Positions 1 through 63,449 of a DNA stretch of 64,000 nt are shown here, piece by piece; the stretch's first letter is position 1; each line of letters begins with the position of its first letter. The stretch comes from Yuukianura sp. NJ FZ-2021. Lineage: Eukaryota. The stretch lies in contig CM102289.1 of assembly GCA_046563655.1 (NCBI GenBank), forward strand, positions 3,596,001 to 3,660,000. Direction: 5' to 3'. The notes under the pieces are model-generated. The model saw only the letters and a program-made list of their open reading frames with translations, searched no databases and was not told the DNA's origin. Both the position numbers and the translations under genes were made by a program.

Positions 1-1325
1 GTAGGGAAACGGTAATATACGGTCCTTTCCAGCATGCCATTTACCATACAAAGGTGTATTTCTATGTTCAGAATGACTATAATAATAAGTAAGGTCATTC
101 GGAGACTCGAATGTTTCTGTAGCACTCCAGTGCTGATAGAAGAACGGTACTCCAGCTTTCCAGTACCAAATGTTTGTGTTTTTATCCTTAATTCCACCAA
201 ATAACAAGTAAGTGTCAACCAATGGCACGAAATTTTGGACGACCAACTTGTCCTCCTCTGCAGACTCGATCGATGCAAGCGCCCCGCCAAAATCGGCGCA
301 CAGCTCCGTAGCACGCGGCTCGTTTTGCCTTCTGGTCATTAGTCTCAGACATTTGTTGGGAACAGTGCTGCTCAACCAATTTTGTGGGCATACCGCACTT
401 CCGTACTGAGCTGCCAACACTAAAAAGTTAGCTTGATATTAACACAATTAATTGGTAACACATTAAAATAAGTACAAAATCTGAGTAAATATAAAAATCA
501 TAAACTGCACACCTTGACCCAAAAAGCAACAGGGTTGCCCACTGTATTGCGATTTTGTCCAAGAAATGTTAAATTTTGCGAATACTTGAAACCTACTCTT
601 CTCTATGGTACGAAGATTGAAATGTTTTGATTGAAATTCGTTATATACTATTTTATACAAACTCGAATTCAGTATACGCTCATTGGTGTTTTTAAATATC
701 TATTTTAATTAAGTGCAAATTAAGTGCAATAGTTAATTACGTTGCAGAATTTGCGTAATTAAATTGCTCTCAATTCATTTAAATGCGTATACGACTCCAC
801 AATTAAGTCAAATCTTTTGAAGTAAATTCACCGAATATTTTGTTTGTAGCTTTAAAACTGTTTCTTTCATGTTACGTTTATAAACTACGGATTACGGTAC
901 GTAATAGTGGAATTGTTACTAGAACGATTAGGCAAGCATTGGACGGTCTAGAGGCATTACGCTTGAGGATTCTTAGTCTAGAAGTATTAGTCTAGAATAC
1001 TTTGTATCTTTTGCTTAATTCATTCATATAATAATCCAAATTTTGTTTATAAGTTGTTCAGCATGTGTATTAGTACTGTATAAAAATAATCGTACATGTA
1101 TTTTTGCCTGTAATGCGTTCATTACTTTTGAAATGGTATTGCATTCACAATTAATAATTAAAATAACTATAATTTTATAATTACTTTTAAAAATAATATT
1201 TTATTTATGATGCTGCTATAACTCTCACCGTTAGTTTCGATGGCAGAAATTGTAACTGTAAAAAATAGAAATAAAAAGATGGGCTTTGCTAGCAGCGGGA
1301 TTTGATTGGAGAAGAGCAAACGCAT
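1..1325 (-). CDS. Secreted C-type lectin, 3' end outside window; signal exon 1325-1229 probably spliced to CTLD exon 419-1
   Basis: Minus-strand frame 419-1 (missed by ORF track) reads AVCPQNWLSSTVPNKCLRL..ATELCADFGGALASIESAEEDKLV..FGGIKD..WYWKAG..YQHW..GKWH, a typical CTLD. The hydrophobic exon MRLLFSNQIPLLAKPIFLFLFFTVTISAIETN ends in a phase-1 GTGAG donor matching the phase-1 TTTTAG acceptor at 421-420. The join itself is inferred. Confidence 0.75.
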
Positions 1326-3185
1326 TATGGAGTCGAATTTTTTTCTCAAAAAACGTTCGAAATTTTTGGTTAAAGTTGAAATACCAAAGAAATCAAGAAC
1401 TGACCTAAGAGTTGAAGCTGGCATGATGTTATAACCGAAAGGAGATTAGTTTGGTTGTGTAATCTATTCAATTCGGGAGATGAAAACATTGAAATGATAA
1501 GTAAGAGAAAGATTGAGTGGCGTTTGATCCAATTTGATTTCTTCCTAAAATATGTAATCTTTCTATTGTTCTTTTAGAAGATTCCAACCATGACTCACAT
1601 AAAGTCACTTTTCTAAAGCTAAATAAATGAGGTGCACTATTTGTTTTAAACTATTTCGATTTTGAGTTGATAAACAAACATTGGTGGTTCCAAAATTGTA
1701 TCAATTTTCATTGAAATCCTTCTGCATTACTCATTTGCAAATACCCGCCTATCTCATGTCCCACTAGAAGCCAAGCTTTCAAAACATTTCAAATATTCTC
1801 GAGCAATTGAAGTCATTTCTAAATTCCAATTTTGATTTGGATACCATTTTGAAGAGTTTTTGGGAAATAAATTATTTGGAAGGTTATGGAAATACTGTCG
1901 ACTACTTTTTTAAATTATGAAAACATTCAATGTCGATTTGGCTGTGTAAAAATAAAAATTCCAATATCAGAACCATTTCAAAAACAGGTTACGTTTGGTT
2001 ACCGTAAATTCCATATTATTAGAAGCGTGAGCTTAAAATTAGTTTTCGATTTCTGTGGCTCGTTTAGAAACAATAATTTTCCTCACATTTTAAATCGAAA
2101 CTAATTTAATTTTTGTTAAAAATCAGTGTGCTGTATAAATTAAGTATTCTCATCATCGTTTTCGCACATATCCATATCAGATTCTTCCGATCTCTCCGCT
2201 TGTACCGAGAGATCCTCTTCATCGTCACAATCCGACTAAAAACAACGACGACTTCGTTCTTCTCTTCTTTATGGAGAAATGGTGACAAAATTATTTTAAA
2301 ATTTCGCGCGTGAAAAAACGCCGCACCAATTAAAAAACACACTTTTCGCCGATTAAAGCAATGGCTAAAAGTGTTTTTAATTGCAGAAACGTTTATTGCA
2401 GTAAAAGTCAATTTTTCCTAGTTACTCCCGAGTTGCAGTAATTGATTTTTCCTGCAATTAAACTTTGTTTTTCAGCAATTGATTTTGTGTTTTTCTGCAA
2501 TTGCAGCTTGTTTTTTACTATTTAAAAATTTTGTGTTTTACGATTTCAAAGTCTCAAAATTTAGATGCTTCTTTCAAAAGCTCCAGTTTGTTGTTTCATG
2601 ATGTTTCAACTGAAGAATTTTCAGTTTGTGTAAAAATTTATTATCGACTTTAAATGTTGTGTGAGGCTGAGTTCAAGTATTTTCAGTTGGCCCCATTTCC
2701 TGGCCCACGCTTTGTTCATTCCTTTGTTCAGTGGAATGCGAACAATGGACAATTTATCATGGACAAATCTGTACGGCACTGGAAAGGTTACTGTATTTTC
2801 CCGACCTTTGACATAGTGACCTTCGCCATGTCCATCTTGTGTACATTTTTTGCTGTTAAAGTTGCGTTGAATCCTACTTTTATCACGCTCCTTTTCCTAT
2901 CGTGGCCAATTTTGGGATTCAACATTTTGTTGGATTTGGCTAATTTCTACAATGCTCAAGAACCTGCTCAAGTCCTCAACACATTTCTACAACTAAGCGA
3001 AAAATTTTCTCATACAAGGGCAAATCATGTCAAAAACTCACACAAATTCCGAATTTTGAAGAGAAAATTCTCTGTTTGAAAATGTTTACGTAAACTTTTA
3101 AATTTTAGGAATGCCAAAAGGCAGAGGAGTTGTGTTACATGTATCTTATGCTGGAGAAGCCACGTAGTGTTAACTCCACTATCTC
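1131..3185. repeat. Left copy of ~2.05 kb inverted segmental duplication (partner 59429-61484)
   Basis: Reverse complement aligns from AAATGGTATTGCA (1131 / 61484) to GTGTTAACTCCACT(A/G)TCTC (~3185 / 59429); near-identical ORF translations in both copies. Confidence 0.97.
2654..3185 (+). pseudogene. 3'-truncated copy of the chemoreceptor-like gene at 58737-59978
   Basis: Exon 1 nearly identical to 59978-59614; intron donor GT changed to GC (CAAGG/GCAAAT); small deletion in exon 2; homology stops at ~3185. Confidence 0.85.
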
Positions 3186-4178: not shown

Positions 4179-4459
4179 ATGAAGGCTGTATTTGTCATTG
4201 CAGTTTTGGCTTTGGGCGTCTTCGCTTTCGTGGAAGCAAATCCCCCAGGTAAGTTTAAATCTACCCCGAATTAACATTAGAAAAAGATCCTGAAAACAAA
4301 AAATGACGGATTTTTTATTCACTTTTAGGTTGCCCCCAATTTGAGCCCCAGAAGTACTGCACCATGAACTTGACGCCAAGCTGCTTCCACCCGCAAAACG
4401 CTTGCCCAGAAGGCAAGGTTTGTTGTGTCAACGGATGTGGACATCACAACTGTTATTAG
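4179..4459 (+). CDS. Small secreted single WAP (four-disulfide core) domain peptide, waprin-like; exons 4179-4248, 4329-4459
   Basis: MKAVFVIAVLALGVFAFVEANPPG-CPQFEPQKYCTMNLTPSCFHPQNACPEGKVCCVNGCGHHNCY*: signal peptide, 8 Cys in WAP spacing, canonical GTAAG/TTTTAG intron, upstream TATA-like motif and downstream AATAAA. Confidence 0.85.
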
Positions 4460-5781
4460 AACACAAATATTTTCAAATGATTGTCATCTCTCGATACACA
4501 ATTGTTTTTGTTTTGAACAGTTAAATAAATTTGAACCAATTAGCGGAAACATCAAAAATGCTTGCGAAGAATCATTATTACATGAGCTGTGCATAATAAG
4601 CCTATTTACGCATGCTGATTTTTTCTAATAAGAAAAATGAATGTCTGTGGAGGCTAAAGTGTTTCCGAGTGCTCAAAGTCATTCGGTTGATATTTTGTGG
4701 TTTTGAAATAAATATATCATAGGAATTAAAATTTTTTGCAACTCTGGATTTTTCTTGTTGACTTTTCTAGCTAAAACTTATTATGTGTAGTGAAACTAGA
4801 AATTTATCCTTTCTCGATGTCGGTTTTGACAATCAGAAACCTCAAACCGTGATTGTTTATGGAAAAGCCCATAAATTAAAATAAATTAAAGTTAATTTGA
4901 TTTAACTCCGATTTCCAGTGCGCGTGTATTTGAGATTGGACTGTTGTGGCCACGCTGACGATGAGTTATTTTTTTTTACCACTAGTTGAAATGAATTGGT
5001 TCAATCCTAACGGGGTTCGATTTTTAATGTAGAGATGTCCTGCAAAATTATCAAATCATCTTAACCAAACTGTCGCCAAAATTCTTCGTGCGTCAACATT
5101 TATGAATAAACTATAAACAGGTTGAGGAGACATTAAATAAATGCCACTATAGCTTCAACTGTAGGAAATCCCTGCATAAGAGGGTTTGCCAAAGTAAAGG
5201 ACGTAAAGGAAACAGTTGCATTCTTGCATTCCATAATCAGCACCCTTCCCAGAAATATTTACTAAAAACTGTCGATATATTTGTTGAAATATTTACTAAA
5301 AAAACGCCTAAACAGTTGTCAAGATATTTACTATTTTTCAAATATTTTTAAAATTTTGATCCTTAAATCTGAAAAATCAAATCTACAGTGAAATTTGTGC
5401 TGAATTGTTCAGAGTTATTGCAGAAGCTTGGCACGTATTCACTTAGGGTAAAATTTGAAATTCTCCAAAGAATAATTCACCCGAGGGAATAGATTAAGAG
5501 GGCATAAAGAAATTTAAATTCCAGAAATTTTAGGTTGAGTTTTGGTTTCAAGAACTTTTTAGGCATTTAAATTAATAGCATGAAAACTTATTCAAGTGTC
5601 AGAATTTAGGTTGAGTAAGTTTAAATCTAGTTCTAGGTTCTTCAAATGTAAGAGCAATTGACGACAAAAGTCTGGAAATTAGTTAAATCCAACTTTTAGG
5701 CGTAGGTTCATGCCACTTTTTTAAACCACAACGAAATTACAAACTTTTTGTTTAAAAACTTGAAAGAAGTAGCTAGAAGCC

Positions 5782-7166
5782 ATGAATATCCTAAACGGCT
5801 TGTTGTTTGTTATTATTCTCCCAGCCGTTTTCTGCAAAAGTCATTCTCTTCATGGAGCCGAAGAAGTGCAGATTTATTCAATTTCGAATTGCTCATAAAA
5901 TCAAATGTCAATTTTTTTTTGTGTTATTTTTAGGGGTACAAGATAACGAAGAACGACGTGAGGCGAGGAGACAAACTAGGCAAAAACAAATTTACAGTTC
6001 TTAGACCAAATAGCTGGAAAATATTTCAACTAAGTTTCTAACAACAAATAAACTTTCTGTTGCTAACTTAATAGATATAATTGATGCCCGAGTTCCCCCT
6101 GAAAAAGATATAAGAATGCCGGATAACCAGGGCGGCGCAACGCAAAATGCAGCAGGCGACAGGACACCTTGGACGGACGCTAACGTCATTTATTTCATTC
6201 CCAAAGGAGTCTTTTGTACGTCCATAGAAGTTGTACAACAATGTGTATAAAAAAACAACCATTTTTTTTTCGTAATTCCTGTATTTACCGGGAAAATTCT
6301 AAAACCTTTAGCTAAAAACGAGACCGCTGCAATAGCTCGCGCCTTTTGTGAAATTGAGACAGTTTCATGTGTTCGCTTTTACCCTATTTTGCACTTACCA
6401 AACGACTACACTGGAAATTACGTTCACTTCCAACGTGGACGTCCTGGCAAATGCAACAGTTACGTTGGTATGATTGGCGGTAGACAGGATTTGAATTTAG
6501 AGCATATGGCCAAACCAGGCGAAACTGGAGCAAAGTGCTTCCGTAGCTTCGGAAACGTCATTCACGAACTCCTGCACGCTATTGGCTCCTGGCATGAACA
6601 CACAAGGAGTGATCGAGACGACTATGTTCATATTGCGAAGTCCGCAGTTATAAACGGTACAAAAAATTTAAAAAGCTATAATAGTGCCTTAGTAAAAAAT
6701 TACGACAGTAGAACATAATTGAGTATGCGCGTAGAGTAGTTTTAGGTTTCGTTCAAAGTTTACTTATTCATTTAGGTTGGATTAACAGCTCATATTTACT
6801 CGTGGTTTCCGAATGTTTCAGAGCCGGCAAGCTACGCTATACAATATCCGCCTGCACAGAATTATGGAAACGAGAATGATTCAAACGCACCAGGTTATGA
6901 TGTGGATTCGATCATGCACTACCCGGAAATTGCAGGAAAGCTAACTGCACGAAACCGCACTTATGCTCGTCGAATGGGACAACGAAAAGTCATCAGCCCC
7001 GTAAGTGCAGAACGTTTATTTCAGAATACAATTTTTGCAATTAAAAAAAAGAGCACCGTGTTCTGAATTCAATATTTGAAACTAATTGCAGAAAGATGCT
7101 CTCAAGCTATGGAGTTGGAATAATTGCGACGATAAGCCAACGCGTGAACTTTCAGAATACTGCTAA
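5782..7166 (+). CDS. Astacin-family (M12A) zinc metalloprotease, multi-exon
   Basis: Signal peptide MNILNGLLFVIILPAVFC; CNSYVG; HELLHAIGSWHEHTRSDRDDYV zinc motif; DSIMHY Met-turn (~6905); MGQRK; ends ELSEYC*. Confidence 0.9.
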
Positions 7167-42438: not shown

Positions 42439-43202
42439 GATCAAAGTTATTAGAGCAGTAATATCCTTATCAATGTATAATAATTTTTTTTTAAACTAGA
42501 AAAGGCTGGAATAAACTTCTTTGAAACTTTTGGTTTTCCCTGCTTGTTTCACATGTTTGGAGTTAAAAGCCGTGCAAAGTATGATTTAATGATACGAGAC
42601 AAACGACTATTTTTGTTTCCAGCTCAAGGTTAAGTGAATGGCATTGAAGCCAAGAAAAAAATGAAACCAGTTTTATGGTTAGGCTACAACAGCAGATTTA
42701 ATTTTGTGATCACGAAACTCCATGCAATTTCCGCATGACTCACTGCGTCCCTAATTAAATTTCGCCTGTATTTAAATTTTTCCCACCCTGCAAGTAAGCG
42801 TACGCAACTTAGTCCCACCAACATCATCCTGTTAAGAAACAAAGTATATCTTTGAGGGAAACAAAGACAGCTAGGGGTCCTAGCGTAAACAATTTTATTT
42901 AAAGCGCATAAACTAAATGATAGAAATGAAATGATAGAAATAGGCTAAATGGTTATTGTATAGGAATGAGGCCATTTGGCAATTAGTTTATAATTGACAT
43001 TTTCACACAATCTTATTAGCATATTAAACCGAAGGAATTCTTTATTTGTTTGAGTTATTGTTAAACAATTCACGAAAATTTGAAACAGGACTGATGAAGT
43101 ACGGGTGGACATTTCGAGTTTTATTTTCAAATAATTTTTGAAAACCGTAAATATTCCGCATAAATTATCGGATTTAGTTTATGTTTCAGCACAAAACACG
43201 AT

Positions 43203-44271
43203 TTAGCTGGAACACCAATAACCTGTAAACCAGTTTTTGATGTTAGATTTTTTTCAATTCCAATTCTGAGTAATTTCTTGAAAAACTTACTGTCGTAGCA
43301 GGTATCCTCCTCTATGAGATTTCGGAACCAAGACTGATCCCACGCTTCATCTTCGTGCAAATAGCCACCTAGGCTTTTTGGTAGAATTTCTCGTGGTACA
43401 ATCTTGTCCAATCCGTCGCTGCCTCTGTGAAACGTTATTCTTTGACGTATTTTATAGGAATAGAACTTTGATGCAATTTTAAAAATTGGCCAAAACAGCC
43501 GTGATACGCTAAGATAATGAATGCCACCAATTCGCAGAGGAAAAGTATCCTGTTGATGTATCAAAAACTTGACATACATTCGAAAGACATTTTTTTTGAT
43601 TTTTTTGAAACTACATAAAACCGAAACTAAATTTAACTTTCATTAGTAACTTTATTTATTTTTATACCGTGCCCAGCTTCGAGGCGAACTGGATTGCAGA
43701 GTACGTAAGGGCTCTGGCATGTTTAAACGACAGACCGGATAAATCCACGATGCCTTTTCCTCCATGAATTTGGATGTCCTTGTCCTTAAGCGCTTCTTCA
43801 GTGCAAAATGCAATTGCTAACATCAGTTTTTCCAAGGATACTTCACGTGGATCCCAGTTTTGAAAGGACACGCAGAGTACTCTGACATTGTTCACGTGAC
43901 TTTTCAGGAGTTTGAGTGCGCCGGAGTTAAAAATGTGAGTAAATTCTGAAGCTCGGATTCCTTTGAACAAGTCACTTCTAGTCTGAATGGAATCGTAGTA
44001 TTTACATATGGCGCTAATTGCGCTCTCGACGTTGTACTTTTTGGCGCGTATGAATTTTGCCAAAAATTCAAAATCAGTTCGTGGAGATATACCGTCTATA
44101 TTTTCTAGAAACGAAGAAAGTTAAGTTGATTTGAGTTAAAAAAATATATAAATACTTTTCTAAAATAACGAAGAGGTTCGGTTTACCAAATATTTGCTGC
44201 CTGACGATTTCTACCAAATCATTCAAATTTTCTTCAGATGCACTGGTACAACTTTTTGAAAACTTGCTCAT
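43203..44271 (-). CDS. CRAL-TRIO (alpha-tocopherol transfer protein/clavesin-like) 1
   Basis: FLAKFIRAKKYNVE; QIHG; VDLSG; FPLRIGGIHY; LPKSLGG. Confidence 0.9.
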
Positions 44272-45340
44272 TTCTCAAATTTTTACGTATACGTTTAGTT
44301 AAGTGCTTTTAAATTCTCATAAATCTGCGTAATTTTCTCGTTTTCTGCCAAGATTTGGTACAAATTTAACTGTGGCGAACTTAATTTTATATGGACTGAA
44401 AGAATTTGCTACAAAAGAAATATAACTGAAAGCTCCGCAAGTTCCAGTGGGAAAAACTTGGCTTCAATATTATCACCTCGTCATCGTAACAACAGTATTA
44501 ACCGTCTAAACTCAAATGCTAATTTACCGCGCAGTGATTAAAAATTTTACCTAACAAGGTATAATTTCAAAAGTTCCCAGCGATCTCAGCGATATACGTC
44601 TAGCGTCAGTGGTTTTAGTTCACTTCGTTAAATTTTTATCTAATTCTTCACAGTATTTAGATCTTTTCCTGAGAAAACACGATTTAACTTAAAAAAAATG
44701 ATTTTTTTTTCAATGTTCCAGGGTGTAGAAAAATTAAGCCATAGACCCAAAATAATTGCAACTCTCAACGTTTATTAGAATGTCTATAATTTTTGTGCTT
44801 CATTATGGCAAATTCCAGGTTTCCATTCCATAGATAGACAGCAAAAACTTGCTGATTGTATTGTTGAGAAATGAAAAAATAATGAAAATCTGCATAAAAC
44901 AAATGAATAATGACATCACATCCTGTTCATATCGGCAGACTATACTAAATAAATGTTATGCCAATCGTATAACAGTGCGGCAGCGAACTTCACAAAACAT
45001 TGGTGAGCGACCTTCTTGCCGTTTTGGAAAGTGCATCTCTCATTGCTCCATTTGTTGGAATAGCTGGGCTGCCAATAACCTACAACAAAGAGAAAAATTA
45101 TTGCTTTATTTAGGTATTTTACATAAATCGGATAAATAATTTACAATAATACTTATAAAATCGTACTGTCGTAAGTATTCTTTTCAAAAAGATTTGCAAA
45201 AATAGACTTATCACGCTTTATCTTCATCGTCTTCATTCACGTCAATTGTTTCGTCGGACCTGCTTCGAAAATGCCAACATATCACCAATGAATGATCAAA
45301 TTGTGTTCATAACGGAAATTAATCAAATTGATAGGTATAC

Positions 45341-46426
45341 TCACATCGGTTTCCAATAACCTAAAGAAAAATAAGGTACGTTTGAACAGAATAGTTTGTT
45401 ATAATTTGTCACAATAAATGCAAATCATTGATATTTTTTGAACTTAGAGTCTCACTGTCGTAGCATGCATCCTTTTCCACGAGGTTTTGTAAAACGTACT
45501 GATCCAATGCTTCATCTTCTTCCAATTCGCCACCTAGCCTTTTTGGCAATACTTCCTGCGGTACATAATCATCCAATCCCGTGTGCTCTTTATGAAGGGT
45601 TAATCTTTCACGCAGTTTTCGAGGAAAAAAGCTTGATGCAATTTTAAAAATTGGCAAGAATATCAATGGCGTATTTACATAATGAATCCCGGCAATACGT
45701 ACAGGGTATGTGTCCTACGTCAAGATACAAGAAGAAAAAAACAAGAAACAAGTTGAAATGGACGGAAAATTTTCAATCGTGTTAGCATTTTGGATTCTTT
45801 TTTAATTACCAAAATCAGTTTCACAGCAAACTTGACACCGGAATAGCTGAGTGCTCTCACATGCTTAAATGATAGCTCAGATAAATCAATAATGGCCTTG
45901 ATTCCGTAGATTTGAAACGTATGATCCAGCAAGGCCTCTTCAAGGTAAAATGCAGATCCTAATATAAACTGCTCTAAGGAAATGTCACATGGATCCCACT
46001 TATTCATGGACACTAAAATTACTGTGACCTTGTCCACATCGCCTTTGAGGATCTGAAACGATCCGGACTCAAATAGGCGCGAAAAATCAGAGACTCGAAT
46101 TCCTTTGAACAGGTCACTTCTAGTTTCGATTGATTTGTAGTATTTACAGATGGCACCAACAGCTTCTTCAGCTCTGTACTTTTTTGCACGGATGAATTTC
46201 GCCAAAAATTCGAAATCAGTTCGAGGCGTTGTGGTATCAATCTTTTCTGTAAAAAAATCAAAATCTCGGATGTGTAGGTTTGAATATTCCTGAAAACTGT
46301 TTTTAAAACAAATTACTAATTATCGTAAGAAATAAGTATACCCAAAATTTGCAACCTAACAAATTCCACCAGTTGATCCAAGTTCCTTTCTCCACGGTCA
46401 ATATTAGTGGTAGTTGCTGAGGTCAT
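45341..46426 (-). CDS. CRAL-TRIO protein 2
   Basis: As above; YPVRIAGIHYVN; LPKRLGG; ends SYWKPM*. Confidence 0.9.
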
Positions 46427-47417
46427 GACTCGCTAGCTAAAGGTACTAGGTAACTAATTCGACATTTTTTATAAGGACGTTTTTAATAACCAACTTAACA
46501 GTGTAAAAAGAGAACTAATGCTAATGGAAACCAGGTAAAACCTGTTACACAACTGATAATTGAGCCACTAAATTTTATTGCGGAAAGTGGTGCGAAAAAC
46601 TTCAATGAAAAACTTTGTTAAAATAATATTGGCGTAAAGCTACCAAAAGGTTAGGTTTGACTTTACTAATCATTAATGGGGCTCCCACAATATTACAAAG
46701 CCTTTAGATACTAAGTCATTTGCAGATCTGTATTTTGTAATGTGTGTTTGCTCCAGAAGTGACAAGAATTGCGCAAAAACGCTTATCACTATCAGCCATC
46801 TACTAAAGCACTATGGGTTAGTCAAATTTAAACATAAAAATGTAATAATAATTTTTTCGTTCCGGTACACAACTCTCATCAACAGAAACGCAATTAAATT
46901 TGGTGTTAATCTTTGATTTTCAGAGTTCAGAACAGTACATACTTCACAATTTCTTCCACTAACCATTTCATGGCGGTACTTTGGATTGTTTATTTACATT
47001 TAAAAGGCTACACTTATTGTACTGACAAATAAACGGTTGTAAACCGGTGTACGTAAGTAGCGGAACATGGCTGCTGGTCGGCCAGACAGACAAGGTGGAG
47101 TCATAAAGTAGCTTCAGCCACTTAATAAATTACTGCAGAAGATCTGTATTGTGAATTGGGATACTCACTTGCCTTGATCCCAATCCAGCAAAACATTGAG
47201 GACAACACGGCATGAAATGTCACAGTTTTGTGTTTGTGACTTTCATGATTTTATAAACTTAGCTTATTCTCAACTGTTACAAAATGAAAGCGACAATTGG
47301 ATTACTACAGGTACAACATAATGCAAAAATTTAAAACAACTCCTGGCAGAAGAATGCACTCGTGTTTGTCAGCCAAACACGAAATGAATGATGCTTTCTT
47401 TTGTTTATCGTAGTGTG

Positions 47418-48466
47418 TCATTCCTTCGCGTTTGCGGGCTTCCAATAGCCTGAAAACAGTCGCAAAACTTTTTACTCTTCTTTTTCATTTTGAAATTTTT
47501 TTAAAAATCTTACTGTCATAACAAGGATTTTGTTGCATGAGATTTAAAAGCACCGAGTTGTCCCACGCCTCATCTCCTTCCATCAGTCCACCTAAATGTT
47601 TTGGAAGCAACTCCGGTGAAATAAATTCCAGCAATGTTTTCATATCGGAATGAAACTTGATCCTGTCACGAATTTTTTTCGGAAGAAATTTTAAGACCAT
47701 TGTATAAATTGGCCAAAATATTGATGGGGTATTAACAAAATGAATTCCGGCAACTCGTAGTGGATAAGTTCTCTACAAAAGGAACTGAAAATTAAATTCT
47801 TGAGTGGCTTTTTTAAACAAAAAAAAATGAAAGTTTTTGGTTTTTTACCAAGCTATAATTCATGAAGAACATTAAGTGCTTATAGGTCAACTGTCTGACA
47901 TGGCCGAACGAGAATCCAGACAAATCTATGATTGCCACGCCACCATGAATTTGAAACATTGGATTCTTAATATCCTCTTCAAAGACAAATACCGAAGACA
48001 GCATCAATGTTTCTAGAGATACTTTCCTTGGATCCCAAAGGTCAATGGAGAAACACAACAGAGGTACATTGTTAATTCGACCTTTGAGGTGTCTCACAGG
48101 CCCTGATTTGTATACAGATTCAAACTGCGCCGCTGTAATTCCCTCTAACTTGTCAAGGTTAGATTGAATCCCATTGTAGTATCTCTGGATCGAACAAATG
48201 GCAGCTTCTACGTTGTACTCCTTTACACGAATGAATTTTGCCAAAAATTCAAAATCTGTTCGTGTCTTTAGAACAGAATCGGTTTCTATCAAAAATGGCA
48301 ATAGGAAATACTGTTTTTAGTTTTTAAATACAGTACTAAACCGGTTTCTTAATCGTAACCTTTTAGTTTATCTATTTCGTATTTCACCTTGCAGTCGATT
48401 TTTGGCAGTTTCGACCAGTTGCTCTAGTTCTGTTTCCAAGTTTTGCGCCCCCATTTGTATTGCCAT
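47418..48466 (-). CDS. CRAL-TRIO protein 3
   Basis: FLAKFIRVKEYNVE; QIHGGVAIIDLSG; RDRIKFH; LPKHLGG. Confidence 0.9.
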
Positions 48467-49041
48467 GTTGTTCTAAACAATGAAACTTATGATGTGACTT
48501 GTGCTTCGAGCGCAACTAGTTAATTTTGTTTTGCATTAATTGAGATGGTGGCTTCGGGTTAAATTACTCTAAAAAAAACGTGGGAAAGTGAGAAAGCGAT
48601 CAACCCAACTTTTAGTTCTTTTTACAAGAATTCCGAAGGCCATTGGACAATTCTGTCGAAAAAGGTAGTTTTTGTCTGAAACTTACTTATATTGAAATTG
48701 ATGAAAGATAACTAAAAAAGTAACTCGTACTTCTAATTCTCGTTAAGACAATAATTAAACTTCCTTTTTCAAATAGAAAAATGCCAATTTTTTTTGTTTC
48801 ATTTCGCGATCCGCCCGTATTTGACGGGGTCCAAACGATCTCCATTATAAGAAATGGGCGGCCATTAGTCAATTCCCAGTACAAGGTGCATGGAAAATCT
48901 AAAAATAAACTCTCCCCAAAACGCGAAAAACAAAACGTATAACTTGTAAACTCGTATAAATAAATGTGGATATGATACTTTTCAAAAATCAGATTTTCAT
49001 TTTAAATATTAATGCAGCATTATCCGCTTCAATTATACCGA

Positions 49042-49138
49042 TAAATAAACTTCTTGCAAAGCCAGTATAAGTAAGTATCGTCAGATCAATTATAGAGAAT
49101 TCCCATACAGAATATTGCTGACCTTTACCTCCGATATT
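49042..49138 (-). mobile_element. Terminal remnant of the element at 8842-9848
   Basis: TAAATAAACTTCTTGCAAAG..TAAGTATCGTCAGATCA.TTATAGA matches 8842-8935. Confidence 0.75.
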
Positions 49139-49819
49139 GATACTGCAATAATTGTAATAATCTACGAATAATTGCAATAACTAGGTTTATTATAATTTCT
49201 ACATTTTTTGCACATCATTTATTTCAACTAAAAACATTTAAATAAATTCTGGTTCTGTAAATAGACAACAAAGCTTGCTTGATTTATTGTGTGTAGTGCT
49301 GTGCATTAGTGCAATCAAAATCGGAATAAAACAAATAAGTAAATGAGAATGAACTCACAAAACCTGTTCACCATCAACATACTAAATGCTATACTATACT
49401 GGAATGTTTCGCCAATCGTACGACGCTGTAATAGCCTAGCGAACTTCAAAAATAAAGTGTTTCAAATTTTGAAAAGCCCATTCCTCACGTTCTATAGTTT
49501 CATTTGTTGAAGTACCTAGTTGGGCTACCCCACTATAAAAAAAAATAGTGCTCTACGTTAGTTTATATTTTACATAAACCCAGATATTTAATTTAAATTA
49601 CAATAATAACTTATTGTAATTATAAGGATACAATCGTATTGTCTTAACGAGTGTTTTTTGCTGCAAGATGTGCAAACACAGGCTGATTCCACACCTCATC
49701 TTGCGTCGTTCAAGTCAATTGTTGCGTCGGAGCTGTTCCAGAAATGTCAAAAGATCAAGAGTGAATATTCTGCTGAAATGGTGTTCCTAAACTGAAACTA
49801 ACGAAATCGGTCGGTATAC

Positions 49820-50962
49820 CTACGTCGCTTTCCAATAACCTAAAAGAAAACAAGATTATGTGAGAAAACTAGCTTCTCATAGTAAATTCAATTGGAAATT
49901 ATAGAAATTTTTTGAAATAAAAAAAAATTAAAGTCTCACTGTCGTAGCATGTATCCTTTTCCATCAGATTTCGTAACACATGCGAATCCCATGCTTCATC
50001 TTCTTCCAATTCGCCACCTAGACTTTTTGGCAATACCTCCTGAGGTACATAATTTTCCAATCCTATGTGATCTCTATGAACCGTTAACCTTTCACGGAGT
50101 TTTTGTGGAAAAAAACTTGATGAAATTTTAAAAATTGGTAAGAATATCAATGGAGCATTTACATGATGAATTCCAGCAATTCGGACAGGGTAGGTGTCCT
50201 ATAAGTATCAAATAAAAAAAAACAAGGTATAGATGTTAAAATTGATGAAAAATTTCAATAGTACTTTCATTACTCAACATTGTGTGTGTTTTTTTTGTAA
50301 TTACCACAACCAGTTTCACAGCAAACTTGATGCTGGAGTAGCTGAGTGCTCTCACATGTTTAAATGATAGCCCAGACAGATCAATGATGGCCTTGGCTCC
50401 GTGGATTTGGAAAGTAGGATCCAGTAATGCTTCTTCAATGTAAAATGCGGATGCTAATATCAACTGCTCTAAGGAGATGTCACACGGATCCCACTTATTC
50501 ATGGACATTAGAACCACGGTGACCTTGTCCGCGTCACCTTTGAGGATCTGAAGCGCGCCGGACTCAAATAGGCGCGAAAAATCAGAGACTCGAATTCCTT
50601 TGAATACGTCACTTCTAGTTTGGATTGATTTGTAGTATTTACAGATGGCGCCAACAGCCTCTTCAGCTCTGTACTTTTTTGCACGGATGAATTTCGCCAA
50701 AAATTCGAAGTCAGTTCGAGGCGTTGTGAAATCAATCTTCTCTTTAAAAAATCAAAATCCAAGAAGTGTAGTTTTGAATATTCCTGAAAACTGTTTTTAA
50801 AAACAAATTAGAAATATAAGTTATACCCAAAATTTGTGACCTAACAAATTCCACCAGTTGATCCAAGTTCGCTTCTTCGCTCTCAACGGTAGTGCTAGTT
50901 GCTGAGGTCATGACTCGAACCTTAGGTGCACTAGCCCCCTTTTTAGTCTTTTTTCTTGGCAT
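49820..50962 (-). CDS. CRAL-TRIO protein 4 (recent duplicate of 2)
   Basis: Near-identical translation to protein 2; flanks also similar; Lys-rich N-terminal extension. Confidence 0.9.
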
Positions 50963-58736: not shown

Positions 58737-59978
58737 TTAGCTTAGCCTTCTGTACATAACTAGGAAAGTCATCATGTTGGCTAAAACTGCGCCAATGATT
58801 CCCATAGTTTCTCCCATTTCAATTTTGAATTGGAGTGAACCAGCCAATCCAATTGGACGGACAGATTTGAATTTGGCGCGCCAATATTTTCTAAGAAATT
58901 TGTTTTTGAAAGTTGGCGCATATCCACTCCATGCCTTCATCTTCTGCCACTTATCAAGGCATTGTGTAGAGTAGTCACAGATCATTTCACCCTTCTTGAT
59001 CATTGCCAAAATTGCACATGAAATGAATACATTTTGAATTGTGAGCACAAGGTAGAAAGACTTGAGGTTTCTGTTAATGCAAAGTGCGGTTCCACTGGAG
59101 ATGAACCAGATGAGGAAGTACTTCAAAGTAACCAACACAGATCCAAAAACATTGTTGAAAATGTTCAACAAGATGTTGACTTCTGCGTACTTCCTGAAGC
59201 CTTCTTGAGGACCACATTTAATCAGGGTTTGTAGCATGGTAGAGTAGGCCGTTGTCAGGGCAACCAGTTCGACTCCCTTCAGGAACCATTTGACTTCAGT
59301 GAGGCACAGGAACACTCCCACGAAGAGAAGGCTAATGTATGTCAACGCTAGAATTACAAAGTCCGGGAGGATTCCAAAAAGTACTACAGAATTAAACGCG
59401 CCAAGAAATAAACCGAAATCGGTATTGAGAGACAGTGGAGTTAACACTGATACGAAAACGGCACACGCGGCGTCTCCAGCATAAGATGCATGGACCACAA
59501 CTGCTCTGCCTTTTGGTATTCCTAAAATTTAAAAATTCTTGTGAAAATTTCTAAACAGAAAACTGTAGTTCCAAAATTCTAAATTTCTGTAAGTTTTTGA
59601 ACATGATTTACCCTTGTATGAGTAAATTTTTTCGCTTAGTTGTAGAAAAGTGTTGAGGACTTGAACAGTTTCTTGAGCATTGTAGAAATTAGCCAAATCC
59701 AACAAAATGTTGAATCCTAAAATTGGCCACGATAGGAAAAGGAGCGTGATAAAAGTAGGATTCAACGCAACTTTAACTGCAAAAAATGTACACAACATCG
59801 ACGTGGCGAAGGTCACTATGTCAAAGGTCAGGAAAACACAAAAACTTTTCCAGTGCTTCACAGATTTGTCCATGATAAATTGTCCATTTTTCGCATTCCA
59901 CTGAACAAAGGAATGGAACAAAGCGTGGGCCAGGAAATGGGCCAACTGAAAATACTTGAACTCAGCCTCACACAACAT
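58737..59978 (-). CDS. Arthropod gustatory/odorant chemoreceptor-like 7TM protein (2 exons), intact
   Basis: Two hydrophobic ORFs joined by a GTAAAT..TTTTAG intron; YAEVNILLNIFNNVFG and basic loop KFKSVRPI before the final TM. Confidence 0.7.
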
Positions 59979-61484
59979 TTAAAGTCGATAATAAATTTTT
60001 ACGCAAGCTGAAAATTCTTCAGTAGAAACATCATGAAACAAGAAACTGGAGCTTTTGAAAGAAGCATCTAAATTTTGAGACTTTGAAATCGTAAAACACA
60101 AAATTTTTAAATAGTAAAAAACAAGCTGAAATTGCAGAAAAACACAAAATCAATTGCTGAAAAACAAAGTTTAATTGCAGGAAAAATCAATTACTGCAAC
60201 TTGGGAGTAACTAGGAAAAATTGACTTTTACTGCAATAAACGTTTCTGCAATTAAAAACACTTTTCGCCATTGCTTTAATCGGCGAAAAGTGTGTTTTTT
60301 AATTGGTGCGGCGTTTTTTAACGCGCGAAATTTTAAAATAATTTTGTCACCATTTCTCCATAAAGAAGAGAAGAACGAAGTCGTCGTTGTTTTTAGTCGG
60401 ATTGTGACGATGAAGCGGATCTCTCGGTACAAGCGAAGAGATCCGAAGAATCTGATATTGATATGTGCGAAAACGATGATGAGAATACTTAATTTATACA
60501 GCACACTGATTTTTAACAAAAATTAAATTAGTTTCGATTTAAAATGTGAGGAAAATTATTGTTTCTAAACGAGCCACAGAAATCGAAAACTAATTTTAAG
60601 CTCACGCTTCTAATAATATGGAATTTACGGTAACCAAACGTAACCTGTTTTTGAAATGGTTCGGATATTGGAATTTTTATTTTTACACAGCCACATCGAC
60701 ATTGAATGTTCTCATAATTTAAAAAAGTAGTCGAAAGTATTTCCATAACCTTCCAAATAATTTATTTCCCAAAAACTCTTCAAAATGGTATCCAATTTGG
60801 AATTTAGAAATGACTTCAATTGCCCGAGAATATTTGAAATGCTGTGAAAGCTTGGCTTTTAGTGGAACATGAGATAGGCGGGTATTTGCAAATGAGTAAT
60901 GCAGAAGGATTTCATGAAAATTGATCCAATTTTGAAACCACCAATGTTTGTTTATAATATCGAAATATAAAACAAATAGTTCACCTGATTTATTTAGCTT
61001 TAGAAAAGTGGCTTTATGTGAGTCATGGTTGGAATCTTCTAAAAGAACAATAGAAAGATTACATATTTTAGGAAGAAATCAAATTGGATCAAACGCCACT
61101 CAATCTTTCTCTTACTTATCATGTCAACGTTTTCATCTCCCGAATTGAATAGATTACACAACCAAACTAATCTCCTTTCGGTTATAACATCATGCCAGCT
61201 TCAACTCTTAGGTCAGTTCTTGATTTCTTTGGTATTTCAACTTAAACAAAAATTTCGAACGTTTTTCGAGAAAAACATTGGACTCCATAATGCGTTTCCT
61301 CTTCTCCAATCAAATCCCGCTGCTAGCAAAGCCCATCTTTTTATTTTTATTTTTTGCAGTTACAATTTCTGCCATCGAAACCAACGGTAAGAGTTATAGC
61401 AGCATCATAAATAAAATATTATTTTTAAAAGTAATTATAAAATTATAGTTATTTTAATTATTAATTGTGTATGCAATACCATTT
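59429..61484. repeat. Right copy of ~2.05 kb inverted segmental duplication
   Basis: Reverse complement of 1131-3185. Confidence 0.97.
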
Positions 61485-63449
61485 ATCATCTGTTATATAA
61501 AATTAGCGTTATTTGTTATTTGTAGAAGTTAAGCTCAACCTTCTGTTCAGCGGAACATATGCCACCTACTTCTTGAGCTCAGAAGCGGTAAACTTTAAAA
61601 CTGAAATGTTATAAAATTCAACATTTTACATTTTTGTTTGTTAATTTGTCTTTAGACCGATGCAATCACGGCCCAGGAGACATGCAGAGCAAACAATAAA
61701 GCACTGAAACTCCTTTCAATTGAAAATGACGAAGAATTTGAAGAAATTTTACCATTTCTTACTAAAACAATTGGTTAGACAAAACCTGAGATGAAAATAG
61801 ACATGTATTTTGACTTGTTTTCTGTGCGCAGGCGTTGAGGACATTTGGACAAGTGGAGTAGAAACAATTTTTCAAGATTCCGCAGACTTTCTTTGGTCCA
61901 GCGTTGCGCAGCCTCTGAGGTATACCAATTTTGCACCAACTCTGGAAGAGCTCCTGCATGGTAACCATGGGCGACAGCGTCGTGGAGTACATGGCGTCTA
62001 CCCTAATTGTTCTTGCGACAACGAGTGCACGGAGACACCGTCTTGCGACCGTTTTGACTGCACTGTAACTGGAGAGATTTGCGCCGCAGAAGAACCAATA
62101 TGTTCCGAACCGGGCGAGCCAGACTGTTTCCTTATTGATCCCCTACCAAATTGCACCGTGACGTGTCCCGAATGCACAATCAAACGCGGAAAATGCGAAG
62201 TAGGTTAAACTTTTTTCTAGTAAAAACCTTACAACGTTAAAAAGTGAAATTTGATTTCAGAAATACTCAAGTTCTCAGAAATTCCAAAAGCAATAACTAA
62301 GATTTTTAATTTTTTTGTATTCATAAAATTCTCTTTACAATTTGAATTTTCAGTTGATTCAGCCAGTTTGCACAGTAACAGGAACGCCAAATTGCACAAC
62401 GACTACGTCGACAGATTGCACATTAATTCCTCCGGAATACGAAGTCGTACCAGGCAAATGTTCGTTGATCCAGCAACCCTGCGCCGTTACGAAGCCAGAA
62501 GAACCGTGCAACCGCCCTGTCAACTGTACTTTTCAATACAATCCAAGCTGCGAAGCGGGTCACAATCGACCGGTTTTTGGAAGTTCAAATTCAGAATACA
62601 ATCTGCCAAAGAACTGCTCCATGAATTGTCCAGGCGGCCGATGCTCAAATCCGTGTCCCATCAACGACAAGTGCTGTAGAGTATTCAACTGCGTTCCTGA
62701 TTTGATTTGCCAGGCTCCACCAGGTGAAAAATCAAATCAAAAAAATTTTGTTTAAATTTTTAGTTGCTAAAAGTATAATTTCCAACTTTAGTCGTTTGCC
62801 CTCCGCCAATCTATCACTGTCTCCCCGCTGAACTCGTGAAAATCAGTGAAGAGAGACTTGACTGCGGTGAACAAGAAACTGTTTGTGACTCGCCGACTGT
62901 AGAGTGTACTAAGGTTTGTAACATTTGAAATGAATACCGAAATCGAACAAATTGTTAAATGAGTAGTACTTAATTAGTTAAAATATGTTATTAAAAAAGG
63001 TTCAAAAGAAATGCGAAGAAGATGTCATAACCTGTCCACCGCCAAAAACCGTTTGCACTCCTGCTGTTTCACATTGTACCCGACGTAAGTAATGTTTCAA
63101 CAATGTTTTTTACCACCCAAGATTTAGAACTAACTTTTGCACAATAACTTACACTTGATTTGTAGCCAATTTGAGCTGCTCAAAACCAATTGTCAACTGC
63201 CAGAAGCCTACGATCGACTGCCCGCCTCTCCCAACGTGTGAGATACCGCCCAGTTGCTATAGTAACCAGGGGTATCTGACTAGCTCCGATTGCAACTGTC
63301 GCCAAAAACGAGAAATCAAAGACAAAGGAGCTCTGGTGGCTGCCAAATGTGTGTCACTTAAGAAATCCATGGGATACAAATGGGTTGTTGAAGAGTGTAA
63401 CAAGGCCAACTACTTTATTTGTGAAGAGGCTCATTCAGTTTTCTTTTAA
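61290..63449 (+). CDS. Secreted split C-type lectin with ~309-aa Cys-rich insert; exons 61290-61386, 61526-61587, 61656-61773, 61832-62199, 62354-62723, 62792-62913, 63000-63084, 63166-63449
   Basis: All seven introns are GT-AG and phase-compatible; CTLD N-half (YFLS..AQETC..LLSIENDEE..IWTSG..FLWSS..YTNFA) and C-half (KCVSL..KWVVEEC..NYFICE) are separated by RQRR-[Cys-rich]-RQKR. Confidence 0.88.

Follow-up and report, generated by a model that had tools for sequence, protein, structure and literature searches.

A mirror-armed, cysteine-rich insert between two conserved furin-type motifs in a C-type-lectin-like protein of Yuukianura sp., and its possible folding as a disulfide ladder

How might 44 cysteines be paired in a 309-residue segment that interrupts a single predicted protein domain? 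The question is raised by a gene in the stretch analysed here (the window), 64,000 nucleotides of Yuukianura sp. NJ FZ-2021 (GenBank assembly GCA_046563655.1, contig CM102289.1, positions 3,596,001 to 3,660,000 of the forward strand), from whose first letter all positions are counted unless another sequence is named. The gene (61290-63449, + strand) has eight exons and encodes a 501-residue product in which a signal-peptide-like N-terminus precedes a C-type-lectin-like domain, itself split by the cysteine-rich insert (61984-63299, a genomic span that includes four introns). An earlier reading of these letters, called here the original prediction, held that the insert is mirror-symmetric, its two arms zipped into a long antiparallel beta-ribbon cross-linked rung by rung, with a knob at the tip. 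We tentatively favour a hairpin of antiparallel arms cross-linked by inter-arm disulfide rungs, a reading that falls a little short of probable. Clearly more doubtful is the fuller proposal, in which a ladder rod of about 20 rungs (two 130-residue arms and a small knob) would be built on a lectin-fold clamp and then cut away at two conserved furin-type sites.

The insert begins with CSC and ends with CNC, exactly as first described, and lies directly between the furin-type motifs RQRR (61972-61983) and RQKR (63300-63311); 61984 opens the first codon past RQRR, and the final C-N-C codons occupy 63291-63299. It comprises an N arm (aa 152-281, 62008-62551), which has 130 residues and 20 Cys, is rich in Thr, Glu and Pro and carries a net charge of -12; a central block, the supposed knob (aa 282-322, 62552-62674), in which a 21-residue Cys-free loop is followed by five closely spaced Cys; and a Pro-rich C arm (aa 323-452, 62675-63299) of 130 residues and 19 Cys. 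The interval from one Cys to the next is exactly six residues in 16 of 43 cases and 5-8 residues in 28 of 43, and the C arm of the window includes nine successive C-x6-C intervals. Each arm contains one double-length stretch devoid of Cys, 13 residues in the N arm (62420-62458) and 14 in the C arm (62821-62862), the lengths originally quoted. Outside these gaps the N arm has 15 Cys ahead of its gap and the C arm has 14 beyond its own, where the 15 include all three of CTVTCPEC (62152-62175), a motif with three Cys in eight residues, one of them beyond the mirror register; the claim of 14 register Cys per arm plus one extra is thereby recovered.

Since the insert departs from the host domain and rejoins it at one point, the chain must run out and return. 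In the hairpin that we tentatively favour, the outgoing N arm and the returning C arm, with their 20 and 19 Cys, would lie antiparallel; the k-th Cys from the N end would bond the k-th from the C end, with the C-x-C at the base of one arm joined to the C-x-C at the base of the other, and the far end would close as a block of about 40 residues made up of a long loop and five or six tightly spaced Cys.

Two relatives allow this scheme to be compared across sequences. A phmmer search of 1,835,955,588 representative proteins with the translation of exon 5 (62354-62723, encoding the distal N arm, the central block and the start of the C arm) gave two matches at E <= 0.001, namely P0001 (158 aa, 67% identity) and P0002 (439 aa, 45% identity). 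P0001 corresponds to positions 4392-4865 of a 5928-bp metagenome contig, L001, which carries a complete 521-aa orthologue that shares the eight-exon structure as well as the identity and orientation of the upstream neighbour gene. P0002 reads the equivalents of exons 4-8 contiguously, so that the exon joins inferred in the window form one frame in a relative. Full-length alignments built from exon fragments were left unused because the repeats attract each other and become misaligned. Word-based searches added nothing, whether exon 5 was compared with longer proteins (none of 35 candidates) or P0002 served as the query (only itself among 451 candidates); a search with profile A5 recovered P0002 only, among 1350 candidates; a metagenome scan with a pattern drawn from alignment A3 gave 301 matches and 0 confirmed; and the ESM Atlas held no usable match to the P0002 insert. 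No Pfam family matched the insert, whether the exon translations were scanned at E <= 1 or P0002 at E <= 10, and P0002 had no match in the PDB at E <= 10 except one that was irrelevant. A candidate on a 1667-bp sediment-metagenome contig (L002, 1010-1051) was rejected as an orthologue: it amounts to a 14-residue stretch, 13 of 14 residues identical to the L001 knob, and is attributed to chance or to a chimera.

The regularity of the spacing can be compared between the two halves of the insert in mirror order. When the two series of intervals were aligned in this order with one extra Cys tolerated, the result departed from shuffled series with p = 0.008 in the window, 0.061 in L001 and 0.002 in P0002, three values that come from orthologues and are therefore not independent. 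Mirror order also outscored same order in each protein (14 vs 9 in the window, 10 vs 6 in L001, 23 vs 20 in P0002). The net charges of opposed cells, the segments between rungs, are anticorrelated in mirror register (r = -0.54 in the window, -0.38 in L001 and -0.39 in P0002; permutation p = 0.010, 0.063 and 0.061, respectively), and in the window shift 0 was the most negative among 26 registers tried. Taken by itself the spacing is only modest evidence for mirror pairing, the homologues providing stronger evidence, and the support that spacing statistics and charge complementarity together would give to a ladder is likewise only modest. The one place where the mirror register is broken is the Cys triple, which contains the only C-x-x-C of the protein; this motif is kept in all three orthologues (CPEC, CPEC and CPPC) and might form a local or redox-active disulfide.

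The stronger evidence is a coupled change in the two arms. P0002 has a Cys mid-way in both the N-arm and the C-arm double gap, and the window and L001 lack both. In the three-way alignment each gap is flanked on both sides by conserved anchor motifs, and the arm Cys are matched one to one with the exception of this pair. Both sites are the 15th Cys from the base, that is, they belong to the same rung when the conserved triple is counted as one. By our rough estimate, one random loss in each 20-Cys arm would coincide at a rung in some 1 of 20 cases, or ~1 in 10 if freedom over the counting of the triple is allowed (5-10%). The original prediction had led us to ask whether Cys are gained and lost in step in the two arms, and there is one positive case (rung 15, P0002 vs the window and L001); arm lengths that vary independently, the outcome it had named as contrary to itself, were not seen in the three orthologues. 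Each arm has 19 cells in all three, with no change of repeat number in either arm, and in P0002 the series of intervals, followed inward from the base, runs 1, 3, 5, 4, thirteen of 6-8, 5, 5 for the N arm and 1, 14, 5, 5, thirteen of 6, 5, 5 for the C arm. The coupled change supports a predicted pairing of arm with arm, on the strength of one event.

A ladder of this kind need not be the ribbon that was originally drawn. With a period of seven residues, neighbouring Cys along a beta-strand would point to alternate sides, and proline is present in 10 of 13 six-residue cells of the window's C arm, which is 15% Pro overall; cells 10-15 of the P0002 N arm contain turn-forming pairs. Given this Cys period and the Pro-rich C arm, the regular two-stranded beta-ribbon of the original prediction is unlikely as stated. 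Cells that are kinked or contain turns are expected instead of a flat ribbon, because the period alternates faces and the C arm is rich in proline. Each cell between rungs (6 + 6 residues) would more likely form a small ring, kinked by a turn or a proline, than a segment of regular ribbon. The odd rung spacing of known cystine ladders (C-x-C, C-x3-C) is not the pattern here: C-x6-C dominates, and C-x-C is common to both arms at the base alone.

Structure prediction returned models of low confidence. AlphaFold2 gave a mean predicted local distance difference test score (pLDDT) of 38.4 and a predicted template modelling score of 0.20 for P0002 run without an alignment, and a mean pLDDT of 33.1 for exon 5 of the window run with a three-row alignment. 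The anti-diagonal contact pattern foreseen for a hairpin appears in none of the models, both AlphaFold2 runs being poor and lacking a contact map. A complex prediction of residues 62-190 of P0002 (N arm) with residues 243-380 (C arm), made without alignments or controls, had an interaction score (ipSAE) of 0.06 and a mark of 0.34, values that speak neither for nor against pairing of the arms. Only residues 121-171 of P0002 exceed a pLDDT of 50 (53-69), and there the N arm is modelled as short local strands with a seven-residue period.

That region invites the thought that each arm is its own beta-solenoid or beta-meander, its turns pinned by neighbouring Cys and the C-T-x-T of the N arm arrayed as a flat Thr surface. 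The modelled strands are 3-5 residues long, and five of six consecutive N-arm cells of P0002 have a T-x-T-like start together with the turn pairs RG, RD, PG and KG, as such a fold would have it. The model that suggests it is poor overall, however, with a mean pLDDT of 38; the Pro-rich C arm has no such pattern, bonding between neighbours leaves the loss of a single Cys in each arm unexplained, and the search of solved structures with P0002 described above gave no relevant match. The likeness would be a loose one to the disulfide-braced beta-helix of insect antifreeze proteins, which has a 12-residue Thr/Cys repeat. The period here is seven residues, and no such structure was among the PDB matches to P0002 at E <= 10. 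We consider a solenoid or meander in each arm very improbable.

Several results weigh against the hairpin ladder. A crude mirror comparison of the intervals, index by index, is not significant (p = 0.13), so that the mirror symmetry of the original prediction, accurate as a description of the layout, exceeds chance in the alignment that tolerates one extra Cys and not in this test. Comparison of the two insert halves in the same order does better than the index-wise mirror (p = 0.009), and the same-order alignment scores also exceed the shuffle means of 5.1, 4.3 and 13.7 in the window, L001 and P0002. The charge anticorrelation is borderline, a neighbouring shift being equally or more negative in L001 and in P0002. 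The coupled Cys change is a single evolutionary event among three sequences only, in which the window and L001 share one state. The register holds only with one Cys of CTVTCPEC left out, and that Cys is without a nearby partner. The P0002 insert has an odd number of Cys (45), and the central block of the window has 5 under the ladder scheme; unpaired or intermolecular Cys must therefore exist. The seven-residue period and the C-arm prolines fit a regular beta-ribbon badly, and the one better-modelled region, P0002 121-171, is without arm-to-arm pairing in a model that is unreliable overall. Finally, cleavage at the insert borders is a prediction from motifs.

The likeness of the two halves in the same order is also what might be expected of the main rival, which we hold to be rather unlikely. 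It states that the arms are strings of local two-disulfide modules bonded 1-3/2-4, as in DPY, CREMP and Sp185, so that the insert is a fibre-like loop anchored at both ends and its mirror layout a by-product of similar repeats in both arms. The 20 Cys of the P0002 C arm could be divided into five four-Cys units, exon 7 (63000-63084; L001 equivalent 5113-5197) encodes exactly four C-x6-C cells, and the low-confidence AlphaFold2 model has local structure in the N arm. Extended fibres with 1-3/2-4 links are documented for CREMP, whose connectivity comes from nuclear magnetic resonance, and for DPY, whose module spacing is CX5CX5CX4C, and AlphaFold3 predicts the same connectivity for Sp185 (PMC12723725). 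The Dumpy DPY modules of Drosophila, avian CREMP and the Chironomus silk protein Sp185, two of which are arthropod, resemble the insert in being secreted, very Cys-rich, shortly and regularly spaced and extended; extreme Cys conservation has reportedly been described for the silk proteins. They differ in being open-ended arrays of local four-Cys units with other spacing, and in having no host domain, mirror layout or cleavage sites.

Against local modules, the loss of one Cys from each arm would strand two unpaired partners, and these are conserved in two deeply diverged species; nor do such modules give a reason for both losses to fall at the same rung. The unequal four-Cys spacing that characterizes DPY, CREMP and Sp185 is not found in the arms, where spacing is uniformly C-x6-C instead of a four-Cys module pattern, and no periodicity of two or four cells is visible by eye in the table of cells, a comparison made without a formal test. 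To these points may be added the lack of a Pfam match, at the thresholds already given, and a repeat number that is frozen in both arms in three species. DPY, CREMP and Sp185 are the nearest described systems, and the coupled Cys loss is not explained by them.

How strongly the insert is constrained bears on a further alternative. Between the window and L001 synonymous sites are saturated (proportion of synonymous differences, pS, 0.7-0.9), and the corresponding nonsynonymous proportion, pN, amounts to 0.19-0.25. At the amino-acid level the N arm is 62% identical, the centre 64% and the C arm 74%, which makes the C arm the best conserved region of the protein; the two lectin-like parts reach 64% and 60%. 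The two sequences share 33 of 33 arm Cys columns despite synonymous saturation, and with Cys set aside the arms are still 56% (N) and 70% (C) identical vs 57-63% for the host domain. The insert is constrained at least as much as its host domain, and the three sequences, without Pfam or PDB relatives, appear to represent an undescribed protein family under strong purifying selection.

These values can be set against the possibility, improbable in our view, that the Cys serve mainly as intermolecular cross-links in an insoluble extracellular material such as cuticle, egg envelope, cement or silk, with the symmetry and the coupled loss coincidental. An odd count in the P0002 insert, an extra conserved Cys triple and a predicted secreted protein rich in Cys, Pro and Thr are all in keeping with it. 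Non-Cys identity as high as that of the arms would, however, be unusual for a mere spacer; the number and spacing of arm Cys are frozen; and the coincidence of two losses would have to be granted at the rough 5-10% estimated above. The original suggestion that spare Cys polymerise the insert into a fibre is speculation, although the odd count in P0002 would allow for it.

Two observations concern individual Cys. The central block is the only region with differing Cys positions (10 of 12 Cys columns shared with L001), and near the tip (window 62675-62700) one Cys stands at three nearby positions across the orthologues, with the local Cys count constant: in the window it stands second in a CC pair, in L001 it lies eight residues downstream, and in P0002 two residues upstream. 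This shifting Cys looks like a sliding partner in the knob. Separately, the window protein has six N-x-S/T sequons, and five of them (aa 151, 199, 228, 272 and 302; exons 4-5) read N-C-S/T, with a ladder Cys in the middle. Three of these sites are kept in L001 and some in P0002, and glycosylation there would compete with disulfide formation.

The identity of the interrupted domain rests on several weak matches that agree in position. Preceding the insert are a hydrophobic N-terminus, from which we predict that the host protein is secreted, and about 110 residues with one Cys; past it are 45 residues (63312-63446) with three. These four, at aa 63, 469, 485 and 493, are the only Cys outside the insert in the window protein. 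All of them are kept in L001 and the last three in P0002, and they follow the C-type lectin-like pattern of one early Cys and three in the last ~35 residues. In the lectin fold four conserved Cys form two disulfides, with the first paired to the last. Introns and the insert split the domain, which was accordingly scanned piecewise and not as one piece. Exon 8 (63166-63449) aligns with positions 78-106 of the 107 in the Pfam profile Lectin_C (PF00059) at 15.4 bits (E = 0.033), and its L001 counterpart at 16.8 bits (E = 0.012), both below the curated cut-off of 22.6 bits; exons 3 and 4 had no Lectin_C match at E <= 1, and P0002 as a whole had no Pfam match at E <= 10. Among solved structures, the first 50 residues of exon 4, just upstream of RQRR, have one match, to residues 94-127 of the 186 in the mosquito C-type lectin mosGCTL-3 (E = 0.29), and exon 8 has two, to a lectin domain of the phospholipase A2 (PLA2) receptor (E = 0.25) and to residues 100-128 of the 129 in factor IX-binding protein A (E = 0.83). 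The best matches, weak as they are, are C-type lectin folds at the right relative positions. Exon 3 alone had two unrelated PDB matches and no lectin, and no similarity emerged when the N part was compared by profile with the neighbouring lectin paralogue.

These weak matches suggest a C-type-lectin-like domain split before its last ~45 residues. We call it lectin-like, and not a demonstrated lectin, because the calcium- and sugar-binding motifs are not kept: in the aligned sequences the tripeptides typical of this function are not present before the insert or after the conserved Trp of the C part. Other C-type lectin-like domains (PF00059) with long-loop elaborations likewise carry extra sequence before the last ~45 residues, a place that tolerates variation. 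We know of none with a 300-residue Cys-rich insert or with internal furin-type sites.

The borders of the insert are marked by RQRR and RQKR in the window, RARR and RGKR in L001, and RNPR and RYKR in P0002. All six sites have R-x-x-R, five of the six have R-x-[KR]-R, and none of the three proteins has an R-x-x-R other than its two at these borders, whose positions are kept in the orthologues. By motif and by conservation the borders thus qualify as candidate furin-type (proprotein-convertase) processing sites, and a convertase acting on them would excise the insert. The two lectin-like pieces could then remain joined through Cys 63 and Cys 493, if the canonical pairing of the lectin fold holds. 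Proinsulin offers a parallel: an internal piece is cut out at dibasic sites, and the flanks stay linked by disulfides. As there, two convertase-type sites bracket an internal segment whose flanks are possibly disulfide-joined; unlike proinsulin, the segment here is the larger and better conserved part, is itself disulfide-rich, and its cleavage is a prediction.

We hypothesize that the lectin-like domain clamps both ends of the insert during ladder formation, and that, once the borders were cut, the hairpin would be set free while the two chains of the lectin-like remnant stayed joined by the domain's own disulfide. The sequences themselves show the gene model, the insert with its mirror layout and conservation, the conserved motifs at its borders and the coupled Cys change; we infer the disulfide connectivity, the cleavage and the role of the domain as a folding clamp.

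Among known structures, the cystine-ladder peptides (theta-defensins, protegrins, tachyplesins and gomesin) share the proposed connectivity of antiparallel strands and parallel disulfide rungs. They have fewer than 40 residues and two or three rungs, two or four residues apart, on regular beta-strands. The insert, with no sequence relation to them, would have ~19-20 rungs, seven residues apart, on arms of 130 residues. The bovine ultralong CDR-H3 (third complementarity-determining region of the antibody heavy chain) is alike in that two strands run out and back from a host domain to a small disulfide-rich knob, and the likeness is one of analogy only: its stalk is a plain beta-ribbon without disulfide rungs, on an immunoglobulin domain from which it is not excised, and is ~10 times shorter than the arms of the insert. 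A literature search that covered few subscription journals returned neither a lectin domain carrying an insert of this sort nor a long cystine ladder, and a mirror-armed Cys insert between cutting sites has no described counterpart.

If the ladder is real, it would be an encoded route to a long, covalently braced, protease-resistant rod made from a single chain, and by far the longest cystine ladder known. With the clamp it would also be a new architecture, in which a domain serves as a removable folding jig. Such a rod would be of relevance to designers of scaffolds and display stalks, and to research on the extracellular materials of arthropods. Even on a conservative view, the locus presents a domain-in-domain layout with paired processing sites in an apparently undescribed family.

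It is important to note that 61984-63299 is not one open reading frame (ORF). The window is eukaryotic DNA of ~35% G+C with short GT..AG introns, and the span takes in parts of exons 4-8 of the eight-exon gene; the 501-residue product was obtained by joining exons by coordinates, and all seven introns are GT..AG. Among 5 runs from 2 studies, none was an RNA source. Exon 1 (61290-61386) supplies the start codon and the hydrophobic, signal-peptide-like N-terminus. Exon 2 (61526-61587) has its homologue at 3610-3671 of L001, and exon 3 (61656-61773), with the single N-side Cys of the lectin-like domain (aa 63), is 64% identical to L001 over 39 residues. Exon 4 (61832-62199) encodes mid-domain lectin-like sequence followed by RQRR and the proximal N arm; exon 6 (62792-62913) has its L001 equivalent at 4919-5040; and exon 8 runs from the proximal C arm through RQKR to the C-terminal strands of the lectin-like domain and the stop codon.

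The 5' end of the gene lies within an inverted duplication, one arm of which (59465-61484) takes in the promoter region and exon 1 and extends into the first part of intron 1. Its partner is at 1131-3165, and the two are 94.8% identical over 2038 bp; besides these portions of the lectin-like gene, the duplication includes the intergenic region and the 5' part of a seven-transmembrane-like gene. Beyond its copy of exon 1, the left-hand arm enters an ordinary C-type lectin ORF (1-438, minus strand; Lectin_C, E = 2e-4). The two lectin genes, which are different, therefore have a recently copied signal-peptide exon in common. ORFs that look like multi-pass membrane proteins, with no Pfam match at E <= 0.1, are present at 58737-59978 (minus strand) and 2654-3079 (+ strand), and a gene of this kind is kept on L001 (954-2158, 50-57% identity) in the same orientation relative to the lectin-like gene. 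Elsewhere in the window, and giving it an arthropod-like look, there is a tandem array of at least four CRAL-TRIO-like ORFs (43100-50800, minus strand), one of which (45720-46319) matches Pfam CRAL_TRIO at E = 1e-6 and has mostly arthropod neighbours in the Atlas, as well as an exon of an astacin-family metalloprotease (6251-6718, + strand; Pfam E = 3e-22).

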